Below are positions 5,545 through 18,650 of a stretch of DNA of 64,000 nt, piece by piece. Within the stretch, counting starts at the first letter, position 1, and each line of letters starts with the position of its first letter. Origin of the DNA: a bacterium (GTDB taxonomy: Bacteria; B130-G9); NCBI GenBank assembly GCA_035527515.1, contig DATLAJ010000057.1, forward strand, positions 858 through 64,857, given 5' to 3'. The notes under the pieces are model-generated. The model did not search any database. It was not told the origin of the DNA and saw nothing but the letters and a program-made list of their open reading frames with translations. A program made the translations under genes and the position numbers.

Positions 5545-6747
5545 ATGAAACAAGAAAGCCCGTTCACACCGGGTAGCCCGGTGCCCTATGAGTTCTTCGT
5601 TGGTCGGCAAAAGGAGATTGAAGAGATCCTCACCTCTGTCAGGCGGGCTGCATCCGGGAGGCAGCAGAACGTTTTCTTGGTCGGCGAAAGAGGGATAGGT
5701 AAGAGCTCGCTTGCCCACTACGTGAGAGACCTGGCTGTCAAACAGTACAACTTCCTGACCGTTCACGTTCTCTTGGGCGGAGTAACTACTCTAGAAGAAC
5801 TTGTCCGGAGGGTGTTCGAGCGAATCGCTAATGAAGCTCATGCTCGACGCTGGTTCGAGAAGATTAGCGATGTATTCGGGGGCCGCATACAACAAGTGGG
5901 GTTTTTTGCCGTTTCCCTAGGTTTCAATGCACCCGAGAGTGATCTATCTCACCTGGTTAGAGATTTTCCGGAGGCTATCAACAAAATCAACGAGAAGATA
6001 AAAGATAAAATAAAGGGCATTCTTGTCGTTCTGGACGACATAAACGGGATTTGCAAGAAGGACGATTTCGCAAATTGGTACAAAAGCTGTGTGGACCACA
6101 TAGCGCTCCATTATAGGGGTTTCCCCGTGCTCATCATGCCGGTCGCGATACCGGAGATCAGACTCAGGCTAGGGGAACAACAGCCTTCGCTTATGAGAGT
6201 TTTCAAGGTGGTGGAGATAGAAGGACTCTCTGATGATGAGGTGAGAGCCTTTTTAACGAGAGCATTTGAGAGTGTCGGCGTCAAGGCATCCAGCGAAGTG
6301 ATTGGGGTGATGGTCTCCTATTCAGGTGGGCTACCGATTGTCATGCAGGAGATCGGCGACGCCGTATTCACGGCGAACAAGGATGATCTCATAGACGAAG
6401 ACGACTCAATAAAGGGACTGATGACCGCCGCCGAGACAATGGGGCAGAAGTATCTCGAGCCGAGGGTCTATCAAGCAATTCGTAGCAAGCGTTATCGCTC
6501 AATCTTGCGAAAACTGGGGAGCCTGCGTCCCTTGGCCCATTTCAAGAAAGCAGAGATTCAAAGTAAGCTGAATGTAGATGAGAAGAAGGTTCTCCATAAC
6601 TTTCTGAGAAGGATGAGAGAATTAGGCGTCGTTCTTCAGGATAAGGAAAGGGAACGAGGCTGGTATAAGTTCACGAACCCTCTTTATCCGCTTTACATCT
6701 CGATGGAAGGAATCCGCTACCGCGAGCGCCCCCGGAATAGGAGATAA
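5545..6747 (+). CDS. P-loop NTPase (AAA+ / archaeal-type ATPase-like) with a C-terminal winged-helix-like region.
   Basis: Walker A is LVGERGIGKSSLAHYV and Walker B-like is ILVVLDDINGI. The gene is visibly AT-richer than its neighbours, and a GGAG RBS lies upstream. Confidence 0.5.
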   Translation: MKQESPFTPGSPVPYEFFVGRQKEIEEILTSVRRAASGRQQNVFLVGERGIGKSSLAHYVRDLAVKQYNFLTVHVLLGGVTTLEELVRRVFERIANEAHARRWFEKISDVFGGRIQQVGFFAVSLGFNAPESDLSHLVRDFPEAINKINEKIKDKIKGILVVLDDINGICKKDDFANWYKSCVDHIALHYRGFPVLIMPVAIPEIRLRLGEQQPSLMRVFKVVEIEGLSDDEVRAFLTRAFESVGVKASSEVIGVMVSYSGGLPIVMQEIGDAVFTANKDDLIDEDDSIKGLMTAAETMGQKYLEPRVYQAIRSKRYRSILRKLGSLRPLAHFKKAEIQSKLNVDEKKVLHNFLRRMRELGVVLQDKERERGWYKFTNPLYPLYISMEGIRYRERPRNRR

Positions 6748-7667: not shown

Positions 7668-8777
7668 ATGATGCACGAGGGCGCCCGCGAGTTGGACGAA
7701 AGGGCGATCCAGAGCTTCTTTTTCCGCTACCCTCAGATAGTCGAGTCGTTCCTTGTGAAAAAGCACCTGCCAGTCTCGGGCCTTGAGGCCACAAGGTGCG
7801 AAGACGCGTGCGCCTCAGGTAGAGTTGACCTTGCCTTCAGACAGAGAGCGAGCAACTCGATGGTTCTATTGGAGCTGCAATTGGGCCGCGCCAACAGGGA
7901 CCACTACGACCGGCTCGCCTCGTACGTCAACGACTACTCGGAGCGCTTCTCGTTCTCGCGGGTGATCGGCGTTCACTTTGCCGAGGCGTTTCCCAAAACG
8001 CTCCCTCGTTACAGCCCTCCGCTTTACAGGGTTCGTTTTGCCCCGAGCAAAGTGGCGAGACTGGCCGAGGAGCTCCAGGCCCAGGAGGAGAGGCTCTTGG
8101 GACTGAGTTGCCCAAAGCCGCCCGTCTCTGCCTTTGCCAGACTCTCATACCTCAACGGGTTCTTCGCATTTATGAGGAAGCGCACGTTCGCCACGTTCCG
8201 CGAGGTGGTCGAAAACGTTGCGAACCTCGCCAAGAACCCTCGTCAGATACGCAATCCCGAATACCGCGCGCGGCTCTGGGTGAAGTTTGGGGAGAGTTTT
8301 GGGCTTCTGATTCGGCAAGAGGGCAGGATAGTGCTGACGGAGCTGGGGAGGGCATACGCCGCCTCGCTGGACGCCTCGTTCCCGTGGGCGCTCACGGCTC
8401 GGCAGAGGCGGATACTGATCGCCGGGCTCTCTGCCGCTCGCTGCACAAACGGCCACAAGTTTGGCATTTTCTGCATCCTGAAAGCTGCGGAGCAATCGGA
8501 GGAGAGGGCGCTCGAGACGGCTGATTCGCAGATGCAGAGCTTCGTGTCGTTCTGCCGCTCCAGTCGCCGATGGGTGAGAGTCTCGCAGCGTGCGTCGTTT
8601 GTTTGGTATGGCAATTACGCTAGGGAGTTGGGGCTTTGCCCGGACAGCGGACTTTCGGGCGCAAGGCTTCAGCTGACCGCGTTCGGGCGAGAGGTCCTTG
8701 CGCTATTCTCGAGGCAGTTTGCGGCGTTTGAGATGGAGCGGCGATTGCTTTTGAGAGGGACAGGCGGTATCCTTTGA
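7668..8777 (+). CDS. Hypothetical protein with a possible PD-(D/E)xK-like nuclease fold at its N-terminus.
   Basis: This is a 369-aa ORF in the coding frame directly upstream of the array. The N-terminal GRVDLAF...VLLELQLG pattern loosely resembles restriction-endonuclease-like motifs. I could assign no confident family. Confidence 0.3.
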   Translation: MMHEGARELDERAIQSFFFRYPQIVESFLVKKHLPVSGLEATRCEDACASGRVDLAFRQRASNSMVLLELQLGRANRDHYDRLASYVNDYSERFSFSRVIGVHFAEAFPKTLPRYSPPLYRVRFAPSKVARLAEELQAQEERLLGLSCPKPPVSAFARLSYLNGFFAFMRKRTFATFREVVENVANLAKNPRQIRNPEYRARLWVKFGESFGLLIRQEGRIVLTELGRAYAASLDASFPWALTARQRRILIAGLSAARCTNGHKFGIFCILKAAEQSEERALETADSQMQSFVSFCRSSRRWVRVSQRASFVWYGNYARELGLCPDSGLSGARLQLTAFGREVLALFSRQFAAFEMERRLLLRGTGGIL

Positions 8778-8794
8778 GTAGGATGAGGCACAAC

Positions 8795-10048
8795 ATGTGG
8801 CTCTTAATAACGACTAAGACGACGCATTACTGGTGGGCCAACTACAGCTGCGCTGACGGGAAGAATTTCATGTTGGCGCTGGGTTTGCAGCGAGTTCTGC
8901 GCGTGGACGGCACCATCGGCGAATGGGACCCCGGAACGAGTCCGGAGCATCCGGACGGGGACCGCGAGTGGAAGGAGCACAAGCTGCTTCACTGCAAGGC
9001 CACCTCGAACTTCAGGGAGTACGCGCAGGGGAACAGGGGGCATGAGCGATTTAGGATTTCAGTCTCACAAACCGCGCGGCAGATCGAGTTCAAGGTCAGA
9101 CTTGAGTCTGTTTGGCCGCAGCCGATTCCCTTCCCGGTGCCGGTGCCTTTCCCGCAGCCAGTCCCTTTGCCGGAGCCGCCGGTCATACCGGTCACGCCGG
9201 TCACCCCAGTTACGCCGGTCACACCGGTCACACCAGTCACGCCGGTCGTGGAGCCGGGTGCGGAGCGGGTACCCACGGGGGTTCTGAGGCCGACTCCGTT
9301 AAAAGGGAAGTTCAAGGTCTATCTTCGGTCAAGAGCCCTGAATAGATACAAGCCTAGGCTCCCACGAGACGGGAACAGGGACATATATATACACGGACAG
9401 CCGCTCTGGGAACGGGAGGCCGAGGCGGCCTTTGAGCAACCGCCTGAGGCAACGATCAAGCTCCGTGATGTGCCGATCGGGTGGGCAGTGCTCGAGGTGT
9501 GGGCAGAAGATGACCACGGGCATGATCTCAGCAAGAAGAAGACGATGCAGGTGTTTGTGTATCCTGAGATCTGGTGCAGGCGTGCGCTGGTTCCGGTATT
9601 TGGTCCCCATCTTGGGTATCGGACGAGGTGGGTGCTGCTGCCGCCGAGGGCGGAGCTGCCGCCGGTCACGCCGTTGCCGGAAGGTCCGCAGCCGCTGGTG
9701 GAGCCGATTGTCGAGCCGATACTCCCCGACGAGAAGGGCGTCTATCACATCCGCGCCGCCCTCTGGAAGCAGTCCGACGGCTACTTCGTTGTCGGTAATC
9801 CTGAAGACCGCTACGACCCCAGCAAGATCAAGGACTACAAAGTCCAATCCGACTTCAAAGTCGATGAGCAGAGGTTGACCCCGGAAGACCAACCACTTAT
9901 ATCTTGCGGGCCCTGGCAGACGGGTACAGAGGACTCGCGTTGCGCTCTTCCGGAACACGAAAGCGAACGAATAGACGTCATTGTTCTGGAGCCTGCCGAG
10001 GTAAAAGCGCTCACTGACGAGGTGCTGCCCATTCAGAAGCTGAAATAA
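8795..10048 (+). CDS. Array gene A1, full length. It has a conserved N-terminal domain, a Pro-rich (PFPVPVPF / (PVT)6) linker, and a conserved C-terminal module with a Cys-bounded variable loop.
   Basis: ATG at 8795 is where homology with copy A2 begins (caacatgtggctcttaataacg). The stop is 4 nt before the RBS of B1. The C-terminal 170 aa are shared with the downstream cassettes A3', A4' and A5'. Confidence 0.65.
   Translation: MWLLITTKTTHYWWANYSCADGKNFMLALGLQRVLRVDGTIGEWDPGTSPEHPDGDREWKEHKLLHCKATSNFREYAQGNRGHERFRISVSQTARQIEFKVRLESVWPQPIPFPVPVPFPQPVPLPEPPVIPVTPVTPVTPVTPVTPVTPVVEPGAERVPTGVLRPTPLKGKFKVYLRSRALNRYKPRLPRDGNRDIYIHGQPLWEREAEAAFEQPPEATIKLRDVPIGWAVLEVWAEDDHGHDLSKKKTMQVFVYPEIWCRRALVPVFGPHLGYRTRWVLLPPRAELPPVTPLPEGPQPLVEPIVEPILPDEKGVYHIRAALWKQSDGYFVVGNPEDRYDPSKIKDYKVQSDFKVDEQRLTPEDQPLISCGPWQTGTEDSRCALPEHESERIDVIVLEPAEVKALTDEVLPIQKLK
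9178..9249 (+). repeat. In-frame 9-bp tandem repeat (ccggtcacg)n, about 7 units, encoding (PVT)n in A1.
   Basis: The repeat is read directly from the sequence and is absent from A2. Confidence 0.8.
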
Positions 10049-10058
10049 GGAGGTGGAA

Positions 10059-11441
10059 ATGACTTGGCTGCGACTGGCGATGGTCGTTCTGTTGTCCGCG
10101 GTATTTGCGTTGACGTCTTGCGCCGTAGGGCAAGCGGCTGATTATCCCTGGGTCTATTACTTCGAGAGGCCGGACTTCCCGCAGATACACTGTGCCTTCG
10201 CGGATACGGACGGGAGCGTGGTTGTCTCTACGGGAGACTGGCTTGACACTGGGTATGATTGGGTGACCGGGGATATCGTGTACTACTACCGCTCAGCGGG
10301 ACTGTATCGGATCATTTGCGGGACTGTTGAACCTATTGAGTGCCCTGCGAATACCTTTGTTCTCGACGCGGCCGTCGATTCAGAAGGCACGACTTGGCTG
10401 CTTATTGCGCATGGGCGTAATGGATATGTCGAGACCGGCAGTTTGGCCGGTCCGACTTGCGCAGACACGCTCGGGTCCGCTGTCGGTTATCGGAATTTCG
10501 GACTTTACCTCGAGAACTACAGGTTTGCGCGCCTCGAAGGGGCTACAGTGATTGAGGATAAGCAGATAACGGAGGCAGTGCCGACGACCCCTATCACAAT
10601 GTGTTGCGACCCGTGGGGGAGGGTGTATGTTTTCAGTTGGCGGTGGTCGGACAATAGGGATATTGAGGAGAGAAGGAGCTTTGTTTCTTGGTGGTCGGGC
10701 GGCAATCCGGATGACTTACACGTCTCCGAAATCTCGAACATCCTCCATGGCGCAAACATGGATTACTATGGGGCTCGTTATCCCGCCTTCGGGCCGGACG
10801 GTCTGGCCTACTTCGTTGTGGGGAACGCGTGGGACTTCGCAGCCTCCACAGAATACGCGGTCCTATGCCTTGACCCTAAAACTCAGTCTTGGGAGGTCTA
10901 CGACGAACAGGTCTGCAGCTTGCTAGGCTGCGCAATACGCTACTTCTGCGTGGATTCAATGAACGTCAAGTGGTTCGGGACAGAAGACGGGCTGGTTCGG
11001 TTTGATGGCCAGAGCTGGTCTCGGTACACAACGGGGAACACTGGGCTTCCTCACAATCTAGTGCGGCAAATTCAATACGATCAGGCCGAGGGAGTGTATT
11101 ATGTTGTCACGCAGGCCGACCCACAGTATCGGACAGCCTTCAGCGTTCTCTCCCCCGGAGGCCGACTTGTTGGGGGTCCTTTGTCGTCCCCGCGGGAAGG
11201 GCTCCCTTGGTACCTACCCCAGATTTACAGGGATGTGAGGGGAACGTGGTGGCTGCTGTTGCCTCCCAACTACAGGGCGACAACAACACCATACGATGTG
11301 TATGCGTACGACGGCCGGGGCGTGTTTCGTTGGGACAGCAGGGTCTCGTTCGATAGGCCAGACGTCCACATCGGATTCATCGGGAGCGACGCAGAGGGAC
11401 GCGACTTCTGTGTGGGGCCTACATGCGTGATGATCTGGTAG
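10059..11441 (+). CDS. Array gene B1. It is a beta-propeller lipoprotein (Reg_prop-like repeats) ending in CVMIW.
   Basis: An aaggagg RBS lies 6 nt upstream of ATG. The lipobox reads ALTSC. Motifs DYPWVYYF, NVKWFGTEDGLVRFDGQSW..TGNTGLPHN.VRQIQYD resemble two-component-regulator propeller repeats. The C-terminus is FCVGPTCVMIW. Confidence 0.65.
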   Translation: MTWLRLAMVVLLSAVFALTSCAVGQAADYPWVYYFERPDFPQIHCAFADTDGSVVVSTGDWLDTGYDWVTGDIVYYYRSAGLYRIICGTVEPIECPANTFVLDAAVDSEGTTWLLIAHGRNGYVETGSLAGPTCADTLGSAVGYRNFGLYLENYRFARLEGATVIEDKQITEAVPTTPITMCCDPWGRVYVFSWRWSDNRDIEERRSFVSWWSGGNPDDLHVSEISNILHGANMDYYGARYPAFGPDGLAYFVVGNAWDFAASTEYAVLCLDPKTQSWEVYDEQVCSLLGCAIRYFCVDSMNVKWFGTEDGLVRFDGQSWSRYTTGNTGLPHNLVRQIQYDQAEGVYYVVTQADPQYRTAFSVLSPGGRLVGGPLSSPREGLPWYLPQIYRDVRGTWWLLLPPNYRATTTPYDVYAYDGRGVFRWDSRVSFDRPDVHIGFIGSDAEGRDFCVGPTCVMIW

Positions 11442-11731
11442 GAGGATTGCTGGCCTTGGCTGAGAAGATTGACGTGAGTCGCGTGGTGACCGCGATCGTG
11501 TCGCGGATTCCGGAGTATCTTAGGACGTGCGAGGTTTGCCTTCGCACGCAGGACGACGTCACGGCTCAGGAGTCCACGCTGCTCTATGGGTCGAAGTTCT
11601 GGGCCGTGATGAATGACACCGACCGCGCTGGCAACATAACTGGGAAGCAGCGGCTGTTCCTGGAGATCGGCACGCCTCTTCAGTATTTCCTTGCGCACGA
11701 TAACGAGAGCGGCCAGCTTCAGAAGTTCAAC

Positions 11732-13129
11732 ATGTGGCTCTTAATAACGACTAAGACGACGCATTACTGGTGGGCCAACTACAGCTGCGCTGACGGGAAG
11801 AATTTCATGTTGGCGATGGGTTTTCAGCGAGTTCTGCGCGTGGACGGCACCATCGGCGAATGGGACCCCGGAACGAGTCCGGAGCATCCGGACGGGGACC
11901 GCGAGTGGAAGGAGCACAAGCTGCTTCACTGCAAGGCCACCTCGGACTTCAGGGAGTATGCACGGGGGAACAGGGGGCATGAGCGATTCAGGATTTCAGT
12001 CTCACAAACGGCGAGGGAGATCGAGTTCAAGGTCAGACTTGAGTCTATTTGGCCGCAGCCGATCCCCTTCCCGGTGCCAGTGCCTTTCCCGCAGCCGGTC
12101 CCTTTCCCGCAGCCGGTCCCTTTCCCGCAGCCGGTCCCTTTCCCGCAGCCGGTCCCTTTCCCACAGCCGGTCCCTTTGCCGCAGCCGGTCCCTTTCCCAC
12201 AGCCGGTCCCTTTCCCACAGCCGGTCCCTTTGCCGCAGCCGACCCCTTTGCTGGAGCCGACCCCTTTGCTGGAGCCGCCGGTCACGCCGGTCGTGGAGCC
12301 GGGTGGGGAGCGGGTACCCACGGGGGTCCTGAGGCCGACTCCGTTAAAGGGGAAGTTCAAGGTCTATCTTCGGTCAAGAGCCCTGAATAGATACAAGCCT
12401 GGACTCTCCCCGGACGGGAATAGGGACATATATAGACATGGACAGCCGCTCTGGGAGCGGGAGGCGGAGGCCCCCTTTGAGCAACCGCCTGAGGCAACGA
12501 TCAAGCTCCGTGATGTGCCGGTTGGTTGGGCAGTGCTCGAGGTGTGGGCGGAGGATGACCACGGGCATGATCTCAGCAAGAAGAAGACGATGCAGGTGTT
12601 TGTGTATCCTGAGATCTGGTGCAGGCGTGCGCTGGTTCCGGTACTTGGTCCCCATCTTGGGTATCGGACGAGGTGGTTTTTGCTGCCGCCGAGGGCGGAG
12701 CTGCCGCCCGTGACGCCGCTGCCGGAAGGTCCGCAGCCGCTTTTGGAGCCGATTGTGCAGCCGATACTCCCCGACGAGAAGGGCGGCTATCACATCCGCG
12801 CCGCCCTCTGGAAGCAGTCCGACGGCTACTTCGTTGTCGGTCCTGGGGGCTCCCGCTACGACCCCGCAACAATCACCGACTACAACGTCCAATCCGAATT
12901 CAGCGTCGATGCGCAAGAAGTGAGAGACTCGGAGGGCAATTTCTTGGGCTATTGCGGGCCGAACAATGAGGACCCAGTGACCGGCCAGCCGTCAGATAGG
13001 TGTGCAAACACTCTCCCGCAACACGAGAGCGAGCGAGTAGATGTGATCCAGCTCAAGCCCCTGGAAGTGAAAAGCCCCTTTCCAACGATCGTGTCCGATG
13101 AAAAGCTGATACAAGGAGGGAAGAAATGA
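11732..13129 (+). CDS. Array gene A2, full length. Its Pro-rich linker is expanded to ~12 PQPVPF repeats.
   Basis: ATG at 11732 is where homology with A1 begins. The reading frame is open upstream to 11423, but that stretch has no similarity to A1. An 18-bp in-frame tandem repeat runs 12085-12280. The stop TGA overlaps the ATG of B2. Confidence 0.6.
   Translation: MWLLITTKTTHYWWANYSCADGKNFMLAMGFQRVLRVDGTIGEWDPGTSPEHPDGDREWKEHKLLHCKATSDFREYARGNRGHERFRISVSQTAREIEFKVRLESIWPQPIPFPVPVPFPQPVPFPQPVPFPQPVPFPQPVPFPQPVPLPQPVPFPQPVPFPQPVPLPQPTPLLEPTPLLEPPVTPVVEPGGERVPTGVLRPTPLKGKFKVYLRSRALNRYKPGLSPDGNRDIYRHGQPLWEREAEAPFEQPPEATIKLRDVPVGWAVLEVWAEDDHGHDLSKKKTMQVFVYPEIWCRRALVPVLGPHLGYRTRWFLLPPRAELPPVTPLPEGPQPLLEPIVQPILPDEKGGYHIRAALWKQSDGYFVVGPGGSRYDPATITDYNVQSEFSVDAQEVRDSEGNFLGYCGPNNEDPVTGQPSDRCANTLPQHESERVDVIQLKPLEVKSPFPTIVSDEKLIQGGKK
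12085..12280 (+). repeat. In-frame 18-bp tandem repeat (ccgcagccggtccctttc)n, about 9 copies plus 2 variant units, encoding (PQPVPF)n.
   Basis: The repeat is read directly from the sequence. A1 has only ~2 units at the equivalent place. Confidence 0.85.
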
Positions 13130-14457
13130 AAAAACGGTCGCTGGTCATGCTGATTGCGCTGTGCGCGGTGATCGGTTCGCCGCCTTTTGGGCTGTCCCAG
13201 CAAGTAGATTACCCCTGGGTGCATTATTTCGACCGTCAGATAGGTTGCGTCTATGCCGACGCGGAATGGAACGTGCTCGTGTCCACCGGGGACTGGAACT
13301 ACACCACCGGCGACGGTACTGGGGCCATCACGTATTGGTATTTGTCCGACGGAGTGTTCAAGATTTGGGAGGGCGAGATTGACAAGATCGAGTTCCCCGC
13401 CGGCACCTTGGTCTTGGGTTTTGCGACCGATTCGGGGGGAACTACATGGGCGCTCTTCGGAGAAGGTCAGAACCACACGCAACACGCGGAGGATCTGCCC
13501 TGGAAGTGTCAGGCGACGGTCTTGGACTCCGTTTCCCGATCTCCGCTCATTGCCAATCCCAGGTTAGCACGCATCCAGGGAACAGGCATTGTCGTGGATA
13601 GTGAGCTGACCGCTTCGATCCCGGGGAAGCCGGTTGCCATCGTTTCGGACGTTTGGGGCACAGTCTTTGTGATCAGTTACCAGGTCAGTTACCGGGACGT
13701 TGACTCGGGTGGTGCGAGGTACTTCGTTTCTTGGTGGCCTGGGGCTGAGCCGGGCTCGCTCCGTATTCAAGAGGTCCCCCATGTTTTTGACTACGTCATC
13801 ACTTCGCGTCGACCGTCTTTTGGACCAGACGGCCTAATGTACCTGCTCGCGAGCAACACGGAGGGGATCTACTACGCTCGGTCTCCCTCTGGGGTGCTGG
13901 CGTTGGACCCCCAGGATGAGGAATGGTGTGTCTATTATGGAGGCGATAGGGCGATCTATTGCGTTTATGTGGATCAGTTTAACGTGAAGTGGTTCGGGAC
14001 TCAGGACGGCCTCTTCCGGTTGGATGCCGGAAACTGGGCCTCCTGGACGACCGCGAACAGCGGACTGCCCTATAACGGCGTGCGACAGATAACCTATGAC
14101 GAGATCGACAACGTGTATTACGTGGTCTCACAGTATTGCGACAGCGCAGTTGGAGACTGCTACGGAGCTTTCGCGGTGCTTTCCGGTGATGGGCAACGTG
14201 TCGGGCCACCGCTGAACCTCCCCGACTGCACCGATCTGTGGATACCGAAGGCGCACCGATCCGGAGCCACTTGGTACTTGATGCCTTATGTCATCTACGA
14301 CGTGATCTACTCTTATGATCACAGAAACGTACGAGCTTGGCACCTCCGGGATTGGGTCAGCGTTGGCGCCGACACGTTCGACTTATCCATCGGCCCGGTC
14401 GGGGACCGGCGCACCTTTCTTGCCCTGCACCTGTGCAGCTGCGTTATGATCTGGTAA
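13126..14457 (+). CDS. Array gene B2. It is a beta-propeller secreted protein (Reg_prop-like) ending in CVMIW.
   Basis: It starts with the signal peptide MKKRSLVMLIALCAVIG. The DYPWVHYF, NVKWFGTQDGLFRLD and LPYNGVRQITYDEIDNVYYVVS motifs are conserved with B1, B3 and B4. The C-terminus is LHLCSCVMIW. Confidence 0.65.
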   Translation: MKKRSLVMLIALCAVIGSPPFGLSQQVDYPWVHYFDRQIGCVYADAEWNVLVSTGDWNYTTGDGTGAITYWYLSDGVFKIWEGEIDKIEFPAGTLVLGFATDSGGTTWALFGEGQNHTQHAEDLPWKCQATVLDSVSRSPLIANPRLARIQGTGIVVDSELTASIPGKPVAIVSDVWGTVFVISYQVSYRDVDSGGARYFVSWWPGAEPGSLRIQEVPHVFDYVITSRRPSFGPDGLMYLLASNTEGIYYARSPSGVLALDPQDEEWCVYYGGDRAIYCVYVDQFNVKWFGTQDGLFRLDAGNWASWTTANSGLPYNGVRQITYDEIDNVYYVVSQYCDSAVGDCYGAFAVLSGDGQRVGPPLNLPDCTDLWIPKAHRSGATWYLMPYVIYDVIYSYDHRNVRAWHLRDWVSVGADTFDLSIGPVGDRRTFLALHLCSCVMIW

Positions 14458-14460
14458 CCG

Positions 14461-15015
14461 ATGAGCATCACGCAGGTGTTTGTGTATCCGGAGATACGAT
14501 GTGCAAAAAAGCTGGTATTCGAGCGTGATCCGCTTGGACTGGGATTTATCAGGATGAGGTGGAAGTTGCTGCCGCCGACAGAGCTGGTGCCGCCGGTGAC
14601 GCCGCTGCCGGAGGGTCCGCAGCCGGAGGTGGGACCGATTGTGCAGCCGATACTCCCCGACGAGAAGGGCGGCTATCACATCCGCGCCGCGCTCTGGAAG
14701 CAGTCCGACGGCTACTTCGTTGTCGGTCCTGGCGGCTCCCGCTACGACCCGGAAACCATCACCGGCTACAACGTCCAATCCGACTTCAGCGTCGATGAGC
14801 AAAAACTCGGCCGAATTGAGGATTCGGACAAGATCTGGCGGATGCTGTACTGCGGGCCAAACAACATGGATCAGAGATTTCACCCTCCGGAGCTTTCCAC
14901 CGACTGCGTCAACGCCATTCCTATATATGAAAGCGAGCGGATAGACGTTATTACATTGAAGCTTGAAGTAAAACCGCTCATTGACGAGGGCCTGCCCGTT
15001 AAGAAGCCGAAATAA
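14461..15015 (+). CDS. Array cassette A3'. It is a 5'-truncated copy of gene A containing the C-terminal module only (184 aa).
   Basis: ATG lies 4 nt after the B2 stop. It begins MSITQVFVYPEI, homologous to the internal KTMQVFVYPEIW of A1 and A2. It has its own variant of the CGP...C loop, and the gene-A N-domain and Pro linker are absent. Confidence 0.55.
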   Translation: MSITQVFVYPEIRCAKKLVFERDPLGLGFIRMRWKLLPPTELVPPVTPLPEGPQPEVGPIVQPILPDEKGGYHIRAALWKQSDGYFVVGPGGSRYDPETITGYNVQSDFSVDEQKLGRIEDSDKIWRMLYCGPNNMDQRFHPPELSTDCVNAIPIYESERIDVITLKLEVKPLIDEGLPVKKPK

Positions 15016-15041
15016 GGAGGTCGAAGACGACTAGGCTGGAA

Positions 15042-16421
15042 ATGGCCATTCTGGTTCTGCTGTCCGCGGTATTTGCGTTGACATCTTGCACTGTAGCGCA
15101 AGCAGGTGATTACCCCTGGGTGCATTACTTCGATACTCCCAGCTGCGCGGATCATCCTTCGATCCACTTCGCGTTCCCGGATGGCGAGGGCAATGTCATC
15201 GTGTCAACGGGTGACTGGGTCCCCGATTACTGGCCTAATGAGAAATACTATGACTACCGCCCGGGAGCTTTATACCGAGTGAATGAGGGGGTCAAGCAGA
15301 CAATCGACGCACCCGAGAACACGTATGTGCTTGACGCTGCCGTGGACGGTCAAGGCAGGACCTGGATTATATCTGCCGAGGCGAGCAGTTACCACGTGTA
15401 TTACCGGAACGGCCTGTGCGTTGAGGATAAGGGGTACCCTCTTCCCCAGAGTTTCGGCTATGGGCGATACCGATTCCCGGAGTCTCCCCTTGCCGAGGCC
15501 TACGGCGGTCTTGACAAGCCAGCCTTGGGAACGCTCCGGGCTGGGCGCTTTGTCCGACTTCCTGAAGTGACCGAGGCGATTCCCGGGACACCACGTGGGA
15601 TTTGCGTTGACGCTCAGGGTCACGTCTTCTTGATGACCTCGGAATGGGATCCTTGGGAGTTCACCGCATACTTCGTCTCGTGGTGGGGAGCCGAAGGGCC
15701 TGAATCACTTCGAACTCTCGACCTGTGGCAGATCATTCCGAACTCCTGGCTTCGAGATTATCCGCAGTTTGCTCCGGATGGCGTCGCATATCTTCTCATC
15801 GTGTATAATGCGGGCGGTCCGGGGGCTGGTTACGACTACGCCCTTCTCCGCCTCGATCCTAAGACCGGCGAGTATTGTGTTTACCGGAATACCGATTATG
15901 CGTATCTTGACTCCGAAGTTCGATGCTTCTACATAGACCCAATGGGCATCATCTGGCTCGGCACCGAAGATGGCCTTGTTCGTTTCGATGGGCAGACGTT
16001 GAGTCGTTGGACGACTGAAAACAGCGGCCTTCCCTATAATGCCGTCAGGCAAATCGTGTACGATGAGATCGATGACGTCTATTATGTGATCTCAGAAAAG
16101 GATATCGGTTGGGACACCTCTATGCTATTCAGCATGCTGTCACCGGTGGGCGACGCGATAGGTGCCCCTTTTATCCTACCTACGGTCGCAAACCGACTCT
16201 TTCAATTCTCCAAGGTGTTTCGTGACGGCAGAGGCGTGTTCTGGCTCTGTCCCTATGAGGCGAGCAGGGCTTACTCCTATGACCATGAACGAGTCATGCA
16301 GTGGTACGCAGCCGACTGGATGGAGCTCGTGAGCAACGTCCACTACGTCGGCTCGACTGCTTCAGGCCGGACATTCTGCGTAGCGGGAGGATACGGCGCC
16401 TCGTGCGTGATGATCTGGTAG
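15042..16421 (+). CDS. Array gene B3. It is a beta-propeller lipoprotein ending in CVMIW.
   Basis: It shares the signal-peptide motif AILVLLSAVFALTSC with B4. The ATG of B4 reads ACG here, so the start shifts to 15042. Reg_prop-like motifs are present and the C-terminus is GASCVMIW. Confidence 0.6.
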   Translation: MAILVLLSAVFALTSCTVAQAGDYPWVHYFDTPSCADHPSIHFAFPDGEGNVIVSTGDWVPDYWPNEKYYDYRPGALYRVNEGVKQTIDAPENTYVLDAAVDGQGRTWIISAEASSYHVYYRNGLCVEDKGYPLPQSFGYGRYRFPESPLAEAYGGLDKPALGTLRAGRFVRLPEVTEAIPGTPRGICVDAQGHVFLMTSEWDPWEFTAYFVSWWGAEGPESLRTLDLWQIIPNSWLRDYPQFAPDGVAYLLIVYNAGGPGAGYDYALLRLDPKTGEYCVYRNTDYAYLDSEVRCFYIDPMGIIWLGTEDGLVRFDGQTLSRWTTENSGLPYNAVRQIVYDEIDDVYYVISEKDIGWDTSMLFSMLSPVGDAIGAPFILPTVANRLFQFSKVFRDGRGVFWLCPYEASRAYSYDHERVMQWYAADWMELVSNVHYVGSTASGRTFCVAGGYGASCVMIW

Positions 16422-16435
16422 CGGAGAAGAAGAGG

Positions 16436-16963
16436 ATGCAGGTGCTTGTGTACCCGCAGATTAGGTGCAGGCGTGCGCTAGTTCCGGTATTTGGTCCTCA
16501 TCTTGGGTGGCGCACGAGGTGGGTTCTGCTGCCGCCGAGAGAGAAGGTGCCGCCCGTGACGCCGCTGCCGGAGGGTCCGCATCCGGTGGTGGGGCCGATT
16601 GTGCACCCGACACCCCCGGACGAGGAGGGCGTCACCACAATCGAGGCCGCGCTCTGGAAGCAGTCCGACGGCTACTTCAAGGGCGATAGATACGACCCCG
16701 CCGGCATCACTGGCTACTGGTACCAGAGGTTTCACTTCAGCGTCGATGAGGAATGGCTGAATGCGGATGCACACAGAGACCGTGGTGATCCCTTGATCGC
16801 GTGCGGGCCAAATGACGGCGAACCGGGGGGGGAAGGCCTGTGCGGCCTTCCGGAGCATGAGAGCGAGCGGATAGACGTTATTACCCTCAAGCGCGCCCCG
16901 ATAATAGCCCTCACTGACGAGGCGCAGCCCGTTAAGAAGCTGAAAAAAGGCGGTCGAAGATGA
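16436..16963 (+). CDS. Array cassette A4'. It is a 5'-truncated gene A C-terminal module (175 aa).
   Basis: ATG at 16436 lies 15 nt after the B3 stop. It begins MQVLVYPQIRCRRALVPVFGPHLGWRTRW and carries a variant CGPNDGEPGGEGLC loop. Its stop overlaps the ATG of B4. Confidence 0.55.
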   Translation: MQVLVYPQIRCRRALVPVFGPHLGWRTRWVLLPPREKVPPVTPLPEGPHPVVGPIVHPTPPDEEGVTTIEAALWKQSDGYFKGDRYDPAGITGYWYQRFHFSVDEEWLNADAHRDRGDPLIACGPNDGEPGGEGLCGLPEHESERIDVITLKRAPIIALTDEAQPVKKLKKGGRR

Positions 16964-18327
16964 CTAGGCTGGAAATGGCCATTCTGGTTCTGCTGTCCGC
17001 GGTATTTGCGTTGACATCTTGCACTGTAGCGCAAGCAGGTGATTACCCCTGGGTGCATTACTTCAAGCCGCCTGATATGCGGCAAGTCCACTGCGCGTTT
17101 GCTGACGCCGAGGGGAACGTGATCGCTGCTACTGGTGACTGGAATTACAGCACATACAACTGGGGCACCGGGGATACCACCTATTGGTATCTGTCCGATG
17201 GGATATTCCAGATTCGCGAGGGAGACATAGAGGCCGTGCAGTGCCCGGCGTCCACATTCGTCCTGGACTGCGCGACAGATTCTGCCGGAAGGACGTGGGT
17301 GTTGTTCGCCGAAGGTCATGATTATAGGCAACACGTGTGGGATCCCTGGCGGTCTGCTGCGCTGAGAGGTCCTTGTGCGGCATCCGACGTGGGCTATAGG
17401 CACTTTCGCTGGCCGACCGGTATGTGGTCGTATCTAACCGACTATAGGCTGGCTACAATCGAGGAAGGCGGCTTGCGAGAGCAGCGTGAGCTATTGGACA
17501 GAGTGCCGGCCGAACCGGTCGTAATGGCAGCCGACCCTCAGGGCCGGATATACGTCATGAGTTGCGAGGACTGTGACGACCGCATTGCTGATTTCTTCAT
17601 TTCTTGGTGGTCTGGACATGACTCCAGTTGCATACGTACAATATGTTTGTGGGATCTTATTCCAGATTCCTGGGCCGCTGACTATCCTAAGTTCGGTCCA
17701 GACGATCTTGTGTACTTCCTCATAAGGATCGCGGCCGGAGATGCGAACTCTAGGTTCGCCGTGCTCTGCCTTGATCCAGAGACTGAGGAGTATGAGATTT
17801 GGAGGGCCTCCGATTACGCATTTCTCGATTCGGAGGTCTATTGCTTCTACGTGGACCAGTTCAACGTTAAGTGGTTTGGGACCGACGATGGCTTGGTTCG
17901 GTTTGACGGCGAGACCTGGATGCGCTTCGCGTCGGAAAACAGCCCACTGCCTTACGATCGGATTAAACAGATCCAATATGATGAGATCGACTATGTCTAT
18001 TACATCGTCTCGGCAGCAGAGGATTGGAGAGAACATCCAGACGACTACGTGGCGCTCAGTGTATTCTCCCCAACGGGGCGGGCGATATATGAGCCATCGT
18101 ATATGCCCGGGGGACCGTTGCTGCGGCGCGGATCAGGCAACATATGGTATCTCATGCCGGGCTGGGATGATGATCTAGTTTACGTCTATGATCACGTGAG
18201 ACTCAGCGAATTCAGCTTGCGAGATTGGGTGGACGTCCCGGAATACTCCGCTTGGGATTTCGCCATATCTCCTACGACCTTAGGGCAGACATTTTTTGCT
18301 AATGACTACTGCGTAATGATCTGGTAG
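16960..18327 (+). CDS. Array gene B4. It is a beta-propeller lipoprotein ending in CVMIW.
   Basis: It starts MTRLEMAILVLLSAVFALTSC. About 110 nt of its 5' end are near-identical to B3. Reg_prop-like motifs are present and the C-terminus is ANDYCVMIW. Confidence 0.6.
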   Translation: MTRLEMAILVLLSAVFALTSCTVAQAGDYPWVHYFKPPDMRQVHCAFADAEGNVIAATGDWNYSTYNWGTGDTTYWYLSDGIFQIREGDIEAVQCPASTFVLDCATDSAGRTWVLFAEGHDYRQHVWDPWRSAALRGPCAASDVGYRHFRWPTGMWSYLTDYRLATIEEGGLREQRELLDRVPAEPVVMAADPQGRIYVMSCEDCDDRIADFFISWWSGHDSSCIRTICLWDLIPDSWAADYPKFGPDDLVYFLIRIAAGDANSRFAVLCLDPETEEYEIWRASDYAFLDSEVYCFYVDQFNVKWFGTDDGLVRFDGETWMRFASENSPLPYDRIKQIQYDEIDYVYYIVSAAEDWREHPDDYVALSVFSPTGRAIYEPSYMPGGPLLRRGSGNIWYLMPGWDDDLVYVYDHVRLSEFSLRDWVDVPEYSAWDFAISPTTLGQTFFANDYCVMIW

Positions 18328-18335
18328 CGAAGACG

Positions 18336-18650
18336 ATGCAGGTGTTTGTGTATCCTGAGATCTGGTGCAGGCGTGCGCTGGTTCCGGTATTTGGTCCCCA
18401 TCTTGGGTATCGGACGAGGTGGGTGCTGCTGCCGCCGAGAGAGAAGGTGCCGCCCGTGACGCCGCTGCCGGAGGGTCCGCATCCGGTGGTGGGGCCGATT
18501 GTGCACCCGACACCCCCGGACGAGGAGGGCGTCACCACAATCGAGGCCGCGCTTTGGAAGCAGTCCGACGGCTACTTCAAGGGCGATAGATACGACCCCG
18601 CCCTGGTTGCCCGGCATCCTACGGATCAGCACATTGTTCGGCTCAATTGA
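18336..18650 (+). pseudogene. Array cassette A5'. It is a terminal, doubly truncated remnant of the gene A C-terminal module.
   Basis: The first ~105 nt are 100% identical to A1 at 9541-9650. Homology to A4' ends abruptly at 18603 after GDRYDPA, and the frame then runs into unrelated sequence and stops at 18650. The Cys loop and the ESERIDVI end are missing. Confidence 0.5.

Follow-up and report, generated by a model that had tools for sequence, protein, structure and literature searches.

Four genes in one stretch of bacterial DNA (64,000 nucleotides, hereafter the window) encode related beta-propeller proteins, which we call B1 to B4, and all four proteins end in the same pentapeptide, C-V-M-I-W. 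The question is what keeps this ending the same in proteins that otherwise diverge: recognition of the C-terminus, a role of the underlying DNA in recombination, or the fold of the protein itself. The four genes, their endings, and the motif at the start of the mature proteins are located as follows.

10059..11441, forward strand: B1 gene, 460 aa; signal peptide plus an eight-bladed Reg_prop-like beta-propeller (predicted)
11424..11438, forward strand: pentapeptide CVMIW of B1, encoded by TGC GTG ATG ATC TGG; stop TAG at 11439-11441
10140..10163, forward strand: DYPWVYYF of B1, N-terminal motif right after the signal peptide; putative fourth-strand partner of the closing blade
13126..14457, forward strand: B2 gene, 443 aa; tag at 14440-14454, TGC GTT ATG ATC TGG; stop TAA; DYPWVHYF at 13207-13230
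15042..16421, forward strand: B3 gene, 459 aa; tag at 16404-16418, TGC GTG ATG ATC TGG; stop TAG; DYPWVHYF at 15108-15131
16960..18327, forward strand: B4 gene, 455 aa; tag at 18310-18324, TGC GTA ATG ATC TGG; stop TAG; DYPWVHYF at 17041-17064

The B genes are interleaved with genes of an unannotated family, A.

8774..10048, forward strand: A1, long form; no Pfam or NCBIfam match
11423..13129, forward strand: A2, long form; its longest open reading frame overlaps the B1 tag in the -1 frame, and its start is uncertain
14461..15015, forward strand: A3, short form with the C-terminal module only; starts 3 nt past the B2 stop
16436..16963, forward strand: A4, short form; ATG 14 nt past the B3 stop
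18336..18650, forward strand: A5, A module cut off after about 90 codons; its truncation marks the right-hand end of the array

Inspection of the open reading frames confirmed that CVMIW followed by a stop codon ends all four B proteins, with T, S, S, and Y as the preceding residue in B1 to B4, as the original prediction had stated. It had placed the ending of B1 at 11427-11441; this segment contains V-M-I-W and the stop codon but misses the Cys codon at 11424-11426. For B1 we used the ATG start preceded by a GGAGG Shine-Dalgarno site; the longest reading frame of this gene begins with GTG at 10053. The bodies of the proteins had been described as about 40-50% identical, and the measured pairwise identities to B1 are 42-44%. 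An alignment of the four copies has 462 columns, 82 of them invariant, which gives a chance of about 2e-4 for a run of five invariant columns at any fixed place; the shared ending is thus more than chance. The sole other invariant run of five is DYPWV, located just past the signal peptide. At the DNA level the endings of B1 to B4 read TGC GT[G/T/G/A] ATG ATC TGG TA[G/A/G/G]. The corresponding 17-mer TGCGTNATGATCTGGTA has four matches in the window, each at the end of a B gene, compared to 0.01 expected. Among the open reading frames of at least 100 aa in the window, none besides B1 to B4 ends in W.

To collect homologues, 5.8 billion proteins were searched with a profile and 1.84 billion cluster representatives exhaustively with an HMM. 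In addition, contigs were looked up, and scans of GTDB genomes and of JGI metagenomes gained just a few loci. The B family is very small, with about 19 full-length representatives among the 1.84 billion, all from uncultured bacteria (one of the genomes is labelled Candidatus Coatesbacteria). The thousands of other HMM matches are Reg_prop proteins that are hit through the canonical blade alone (profile positions 256-340). The terminal W is present in all 25 members with an intact C-terminus, and in every one the chain stops there. Upstream of it, I is found in 84% of these members (otherwise V), M in 80% (otherwise L, I, or V), V in 68% (otherwise I or M), and C in 56% (otherwise S, W, V, F, R, or A). 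The pentapeptide as such is therefore not strictly conserved beyond the four copies; the family ends in x-[VIM]-[MLIV]-[IV]-W-COOH, with YSVMIW, KWIMIW, SVIMIW, TCVMVW, TSVLVW, EAIIIW, KRIVVW, and GFVLIW as examples. In a ranking of five-residue windows according to family-wide conservation the tag is ninth, behind YSYDH, LVRFD, WFGTE, FGPDG, and others. Going by this ranking, the conservation of the tag is like that of an ordinary core strand.

The original prediction offered a choice between selection on the protein and selection on the DNA, and proposed a comparison of synonymous and non-synonymous variation to decide between them. We compared the codons in 15 distinct DNA sequences of the tag. 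The Val codon is GTT in four, GTG in three, GTC in three, and GTA in one, so that all four wobble bases are in use; the Cys codon is TGC or TGT, and the stop codon TAG, TAA, or TGA. Across the family the codon at position -5 varies (TGC, TGT, AGT, TGG, TTC, and GTC). Synonymous sites are thus not all as conserved as the residues, and the homologues retain the tag with conservative replacements while the Val and stop codons vary freely. Because conservative amino-acid replacement is combined with free synonymous change, selection acts on the protein. The identity of the tag DNA among the four copies can be attributed to the single codons of M and W together with codon bias. The constraint acts on the protein, which decides the alternative.

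One position departs from this pattern. All 14 distinct sequences compared have ATC as the Ile codon of the tag (window 11436-11438, 14452-14454, 16416-16418, and 18322-18324, and the homologues), compared to a background in which ATC makes up 48-55% of the Ile codons. The other conserved Ile column in the family uses three codons. Among 63 conserved degenerate columns, only two are without synonymous change: the Ile of the tag and the Phe of DYPWVHYF (TTC in 13 of 13). We considered three causes for the fixed ATC. A conserved methylation or restriction site GATC, formed by ATG-ATC, was rejected, as GATC is neither avoided nor enriched (305 observed vs 240-386 expected). A codon-context preference for ATC before TGG was rejected, as outside the tags the window has ATC five times, ATT three times, and ATA four times in this context. 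The overlapping A frame is not the cause either, since ATT would be tolerated there. The invariance may be the tail of the distribution over 63 columns, or it may reflect accuracy-driven codon choice.

The overlap with A also bears on the tag as a whole, whose identity could be a by-product of dual coding with a downstream A frame (-1, reading M-R-D-D-L-V...). The longest reading frame of A2 begins at an ATG at 11423, within the tag; no stop interrupts the frames of A4 and A5 there either; and a gene caller set an A start inside the tag in contig L001. However, the junction between B2 and A3 is in a different frame, and A begins with an ATG past the B stop in L007, L003, L009, L013, and L052. 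In the overlapping frame the Val wobble leads to non-conservative changes (D, Y, N, H), which indicates that this frame is unconstrained there. We consider dual coding an extremely unlikely cause. The open A frame through the tag (M/V-R/D-D/N-D-L-V-G-G...) is seen in several copies (11423-11445, 16403-16440, and 18309-18340, and L001 at 13619), and the overlap is probably incidental. A programmed frameshift or read-through that fuses B to A was also rejected: the frames between B stop and A start differ (0, +2, -1), and there is no slippery heptamer.

The DNA-level alternative had been framed as a recombination junction: the 15-17 nt of the tag would be kept as a site of recombination or gene conversion at which variable B bodies are swapped between conserved flanks. 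Units 3 and 4 of the array have an arrangement of this kind. Two pairs of segments, 14932-15138 vs 16865-17070 and 16540-16700 vs 18440-18600, have 97-100% DNA identity; between these near-identical flanks lie B3 and B4 bodies that are about 42% identical at the protein level. The 5' flank consists of the end of A and the B signal peptide up to DYPWVHYF, and the 3' flank of the following A module, which is 95-100% identical. The pattern suggests that the flanks have undergone gene conversion or that B bodies have been exchanged. The position of the tag in this pattern is not that of a sharp junction, however. On the 5' side the tract of 97-100% identity ends right after the DYPWVHYF codons. 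On the 3' side the increase is gradual: identity is 67% at the tag, becomes high about 100 nt downstream, and reaches 100% only at about 120 nt. Conversion tracts probably stop near the termini of B because the homology ends there.

Some family members are mosaic, which is also in line with exchange. The C-terminal approximately 110 residues of P0007 and P0008 are 68-69% identical to B4, compared to only 40% for the N-terminal approximately 310 residues. P0015 in turn is 66-74% identical to P0007 and P0008 in its N-terminal part and 26-27% in its C-terminal part; these mosaic paralogues are found on L001 and L005. The mosaics imply recombination inside the propeller, with a putative breakpoint near residue 345, away from the tag, and the array boundaries fall inside A modules. 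The invariant ATC codon would fit a junction kept at the DNA level. But with four bases at the Val wobble, a variable -5 codon, and a variable stop codon, the part that is constant across genomes is ATC TGG T, too short for homologous recombination, and by eye the 15-17 nt have no dyad or other signature of site-specific recombination. A recombination junction as the reason for the shared ending is very improbable, and this part of the original prediction was not upheld.

At the N-terminus of every B protein, a basic residue precedes some 15 hydrophobic residues and an A-x-A-like site, and a lipobox-like L-T-S-C is present in three of the four. The AF2 model of B1 is all-beta (pLDDT 81.5, pTM 0.82) apart from a low-confidence helix at residues 2-22 in the signal region, and it forms a toroid of four-stranded antiparallel blades. 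The best matches in Foldseek were Reg_prop sensor propellers, BT4663 and BT4673, and PorZ. In Pfam, the Reg_prop family (PF07494, cut-off 20.4 bits) gave 33.2 bits for B3, 20.3 for B4, and 16.9 for B1, and did not match B2; no Reg_prop match was found in the last approximately 40 residues in any of 14 members. As modelled, B is an exported propeller of about 430 residues with eight degenerate Reg_prop-type blades.

The DSSP string of the B1 model contains seven complete four-strand blades. Three further strands follow at the C-terminus, 440-443, 449-453 (R-D-F-C-V), and 456-459 (C-V-M-I), the latter two joined by a two-residue turn. An orphan strand, 31-34 (W-V-Y-Y of DYPWVYYF), is located directly before strand A of blade 1. 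At this orphan strand the pLDDT rises from 47 to 88; the last 20 residues have values of 86-88, with a mean of 88 for the last 10-residue block. In propellers, strand A of a blade is preceded in the chain by strand D of the blade before it, and the orphan N-terminal strand would thus be the fourth strand of the last blade. This assignment would make CVMIW strand C, between strand B and the N-terminal strand. Going by strand order, the closing blade is therefore predicted to draw on both chain termini, with three strands from the C-terminus and one from the N-terminus. We infer the pairing of the two terminal strands from strand topology, not from direct observation.

The shared ending would then be explained as follows. 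The C-terminal x-phi-phi-phi-W would be the third strand (C) of the last blade and form a tight hairpin with the preceding G-R-T-F-C-V strand. On its other flank it would pair with (D)YPWVHYF, the strand with which the mature protein begins and which would supply the missing fourth strand. Hydrogen bonds between the two chain ends would form a clasp that holds the ring closed, a "velcro" closure, and purifying selection for folding and stability would maintain the motif. A propeller blade is buried on both faces by its neighbours, which would account for a run of four hydrophobic residues that ends in an invariant aromatic. Of the invariant runs shared by the four paralogues, the two longest correspond exactly to the two terminal strands, which supports this closure. 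Velcro closure is the norm for propellers (PMC3797127), and in the solved structure of PorZ the N-terminal segment is beta4 of the closing blade, with the other three strands contributed by the C-terminal end (PMC5121618). We conclude that the shared ending is most likely the last strand, which closes the ring, an ordinary element of the fold and not a sorting tag or a recombination site.

Several observations count against this explanation. The strict stop at W is not required of a purely structural strand and would fit recognition of a free C-terminus as well. The invariant ATC hints at an extra constraint at the nucleotide or codon level, which the clasp does not predict. In an hhalign comparison of the joined termini (last 26 aa plus first 24 aa of the mature protein, 15 members) with internal blade 5, the E values of 0.14-0.26 were not significant; the gapless register placed by eye, in which W corresponds to F of RFD and YPW to SW, is conjecture.

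P0019 and P0055 have an extra domain of about 160 residues before the DYPW-like strand; their endings are still SVLVW and SVIIW. In these proteins the N-terminal partner strand thus lies within the chain and not at the mature N-terminus.

The original prediction compared the ending to an OMP beta-signal or a C-terminal secretion or anchoring tag. The beta-signal is a C-terminal strand that ends in an aromatic residue, alternates between polar and hydrophobic residues, and is read by BamA and BamD. B is likewise an exported beta-protein whose last strand ends in an invariant C-terminal aromatic. However, it is modelled as a soluble propeller, not a transmembrane beta-barrel, and V-M-I-W is a run of four consecutive hydrophobic residues in place of the alternation, though the terminal W is present. 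An anchoring tag does not fit a uniformly hydrophobic strand in a fold that reaches the last residue: the B proteins have no linker, transmembrane helix, basic tail, or C-terminal domain. Sortase- and exosortase-type domains (LPXTG, PEP-CTERM, GlyGly-CTERM, etc.) were rejected as nothing follows the W, leaving no place for a helix or basic tail. The T9SS C-terminal domain, a beta-sandwich of about 80-100 aa (PF18962 and relatives), was rejected as well: propeller strands reach the end, and Pfam gave no match to it in any B protein; just the distant Reg_prop relatives P0025, P0027, and P0029 carry PF18962. In a CaaX prenylation box the Cys is four residues from the end, but in B it is five from the end and is restricted to the 56% of members noted above. 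Searches for sorting-domain models with Pfam on the B proteins and with NCBIfam on two of them returned none; the only NCBIfam hit was a weak local match to PorZ (24 bits vs a cut-off of 260).

The ending could still be read by a partner specific to this lineage. In this reading phi-phi-phi-W-COOH would be a recognition signal for a PDZ-type periplasmic protease or chaperone, for a lineage-specific sorting or anchoring machine, or for an A protein, and it would be read before or after folding. The invariance of W and the end of the chain at this residue in all 25 members, with three different stop codons, are consistent with this. Across genomes an A gene follows B within 2-14 nt or overlaps it, which suggests co-expression. 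Lineages of this kind are diderm (LptD adjoins one homologue), so that an envelope quality-control system that reads C-terminal aromatics could exist. In contrast, the model places the motif in a confident strand inside the fold and not in a tail behind a linker, its conservation is no higher than that of internal core motifs, no sorting-signal model matches it, and no other open reading frame in the window has it. The A proteins have no signal peptide recognisable by eye and would thus sit in a different compartment, and the AF2 prediction for the A3 module (pLDDT 51) gave no fold that can be read as a peptide-binding domain. We regard a recognition signal as an unlikely explanation. It is rather improbable, too, that a free phi-phi-phi-W terminus serves as a lineage-specific recognition element in addition to the clasp, either as a quality-control or anchoring signal read while the clasp is open or as a peptide that docks A. 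The setting would be a small family of recombining surface propellers, amplified in tandem, in an uncultured phylum, and in this reading the ATC invariance would hint at an additional role at the RNA or translation level at the B-A junction.

Ring closure by the terminal strands, the reading we prefer, is familiar from the closest known systems. PorZ of P. gingivalis and the sensor propellers of the Bacteroides hybrid two-component systems, BT4663 and BT4673, resemble B in their four-stranded blades, in export, and in a last blade that, judged by the model topology of B, combines three C-terminal strands with one N-terminal strand. Blade 5 of B has a degenerate Reg_prop motif, W-F-G-T-x-x-G-L-x-R-F-D. 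Unlike these proteins, B is one eight-bladed propeller and not two seven-bladed ones, and it is without a Y_Y_Y domain, T9SS CTD, or kinase module; its chain ends at the closing strand, most of its blades are too diverged for Pfam, and the family is limited to a few uncultured genomes. BamB and further bacterial propellers with eight blades are similar in size, number of blades, export signal, and, as predicted for B, the velcro blade. B differs from BamB in that it is without the PQQ-type repeat signature (identity about 12%), and four tandem paralogues interleaved with the A family are unlike a housekeeping BAM component. A C-terminal Trp is also part of a genuine recognition tag, the motif of the eukaryotic CIA targeting complex, which a preprint gives as [LIM]-[DES]-[WF]-COOH (bioRxiv 10.1101/2025.03.25.645274). 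In contrast to the B ending, this motif is a cytosolic, eukaryotic, exposed tail, and it has an acidic residue or Ser at -2 where B has I or V.

The choice posed by the original prediction is thus settled in favour of the protein, and fold closure is the simplest reason. Since the clasp probably involves both termini of B, folding is likely to be lost when the C-terminus is tagged or truncated. The pentapeptide appears ordinary, but the wider locus may merit separate study for its tandem, divergent, secreted propellers and their A family in a few uncultured genomes, with apparent gene conversion of flanks and mosaic paralogues.

The tandem array A1-B1-A2-B2-A3-B3-A4-B4-A5 spans 8774-18650 of the window, and A and B alternate in every related contig (L001, L003-L008). 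In the window and in L001 the array is flanked by a 369-aa NucS-like protein and by a large beta-helix/PQQ-propeller protein, followed by a TMEM260-like glycosyltransferase. The 369-aa protein (7668-8777) has a weak NCBIfam match to a NucS C-terminal nuclease-like model; it is directly upstream of the array and syntenic in L001. Further upstream, at 5545-6747, is a STAND/AAA_16-type ATPase that also has weak BrxC/D and nSTAND matches.

The A proteins contain no domain recognised by Pfam or NCBIfam. A homologue search with full-length A2 was swamped by its proline-rich repeat and returned nothing useful, but the C-terminal module alone found 18 unannotated relatives. The repeat is an 18-nt tandem repeat (window 12017-12304) that encodes P-V-P-F-P-Q in about 11 in-register copies; it is much shorter in A1 (9080-9223), which makes it a proline-rich linker of variable length. 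A1 is without the first approximately 100 codons present in A2. The short forms, A3 and A4, consist of the C-terminal module alone and begin with MQVFVYPEI. The first approximately 26 nt of the short form, ATGCAGGTGTTTGTGTATCC[T/G]GAGAT, are near-identical across genomes, synonymous positions included. These sites are located at 14470-14495, 16436-16461, and 18336-18361 in the window, and just past the B stop in L003, L009, L013, and L052; the B proteins of the genomes that share this start are merely 33-45% identical.
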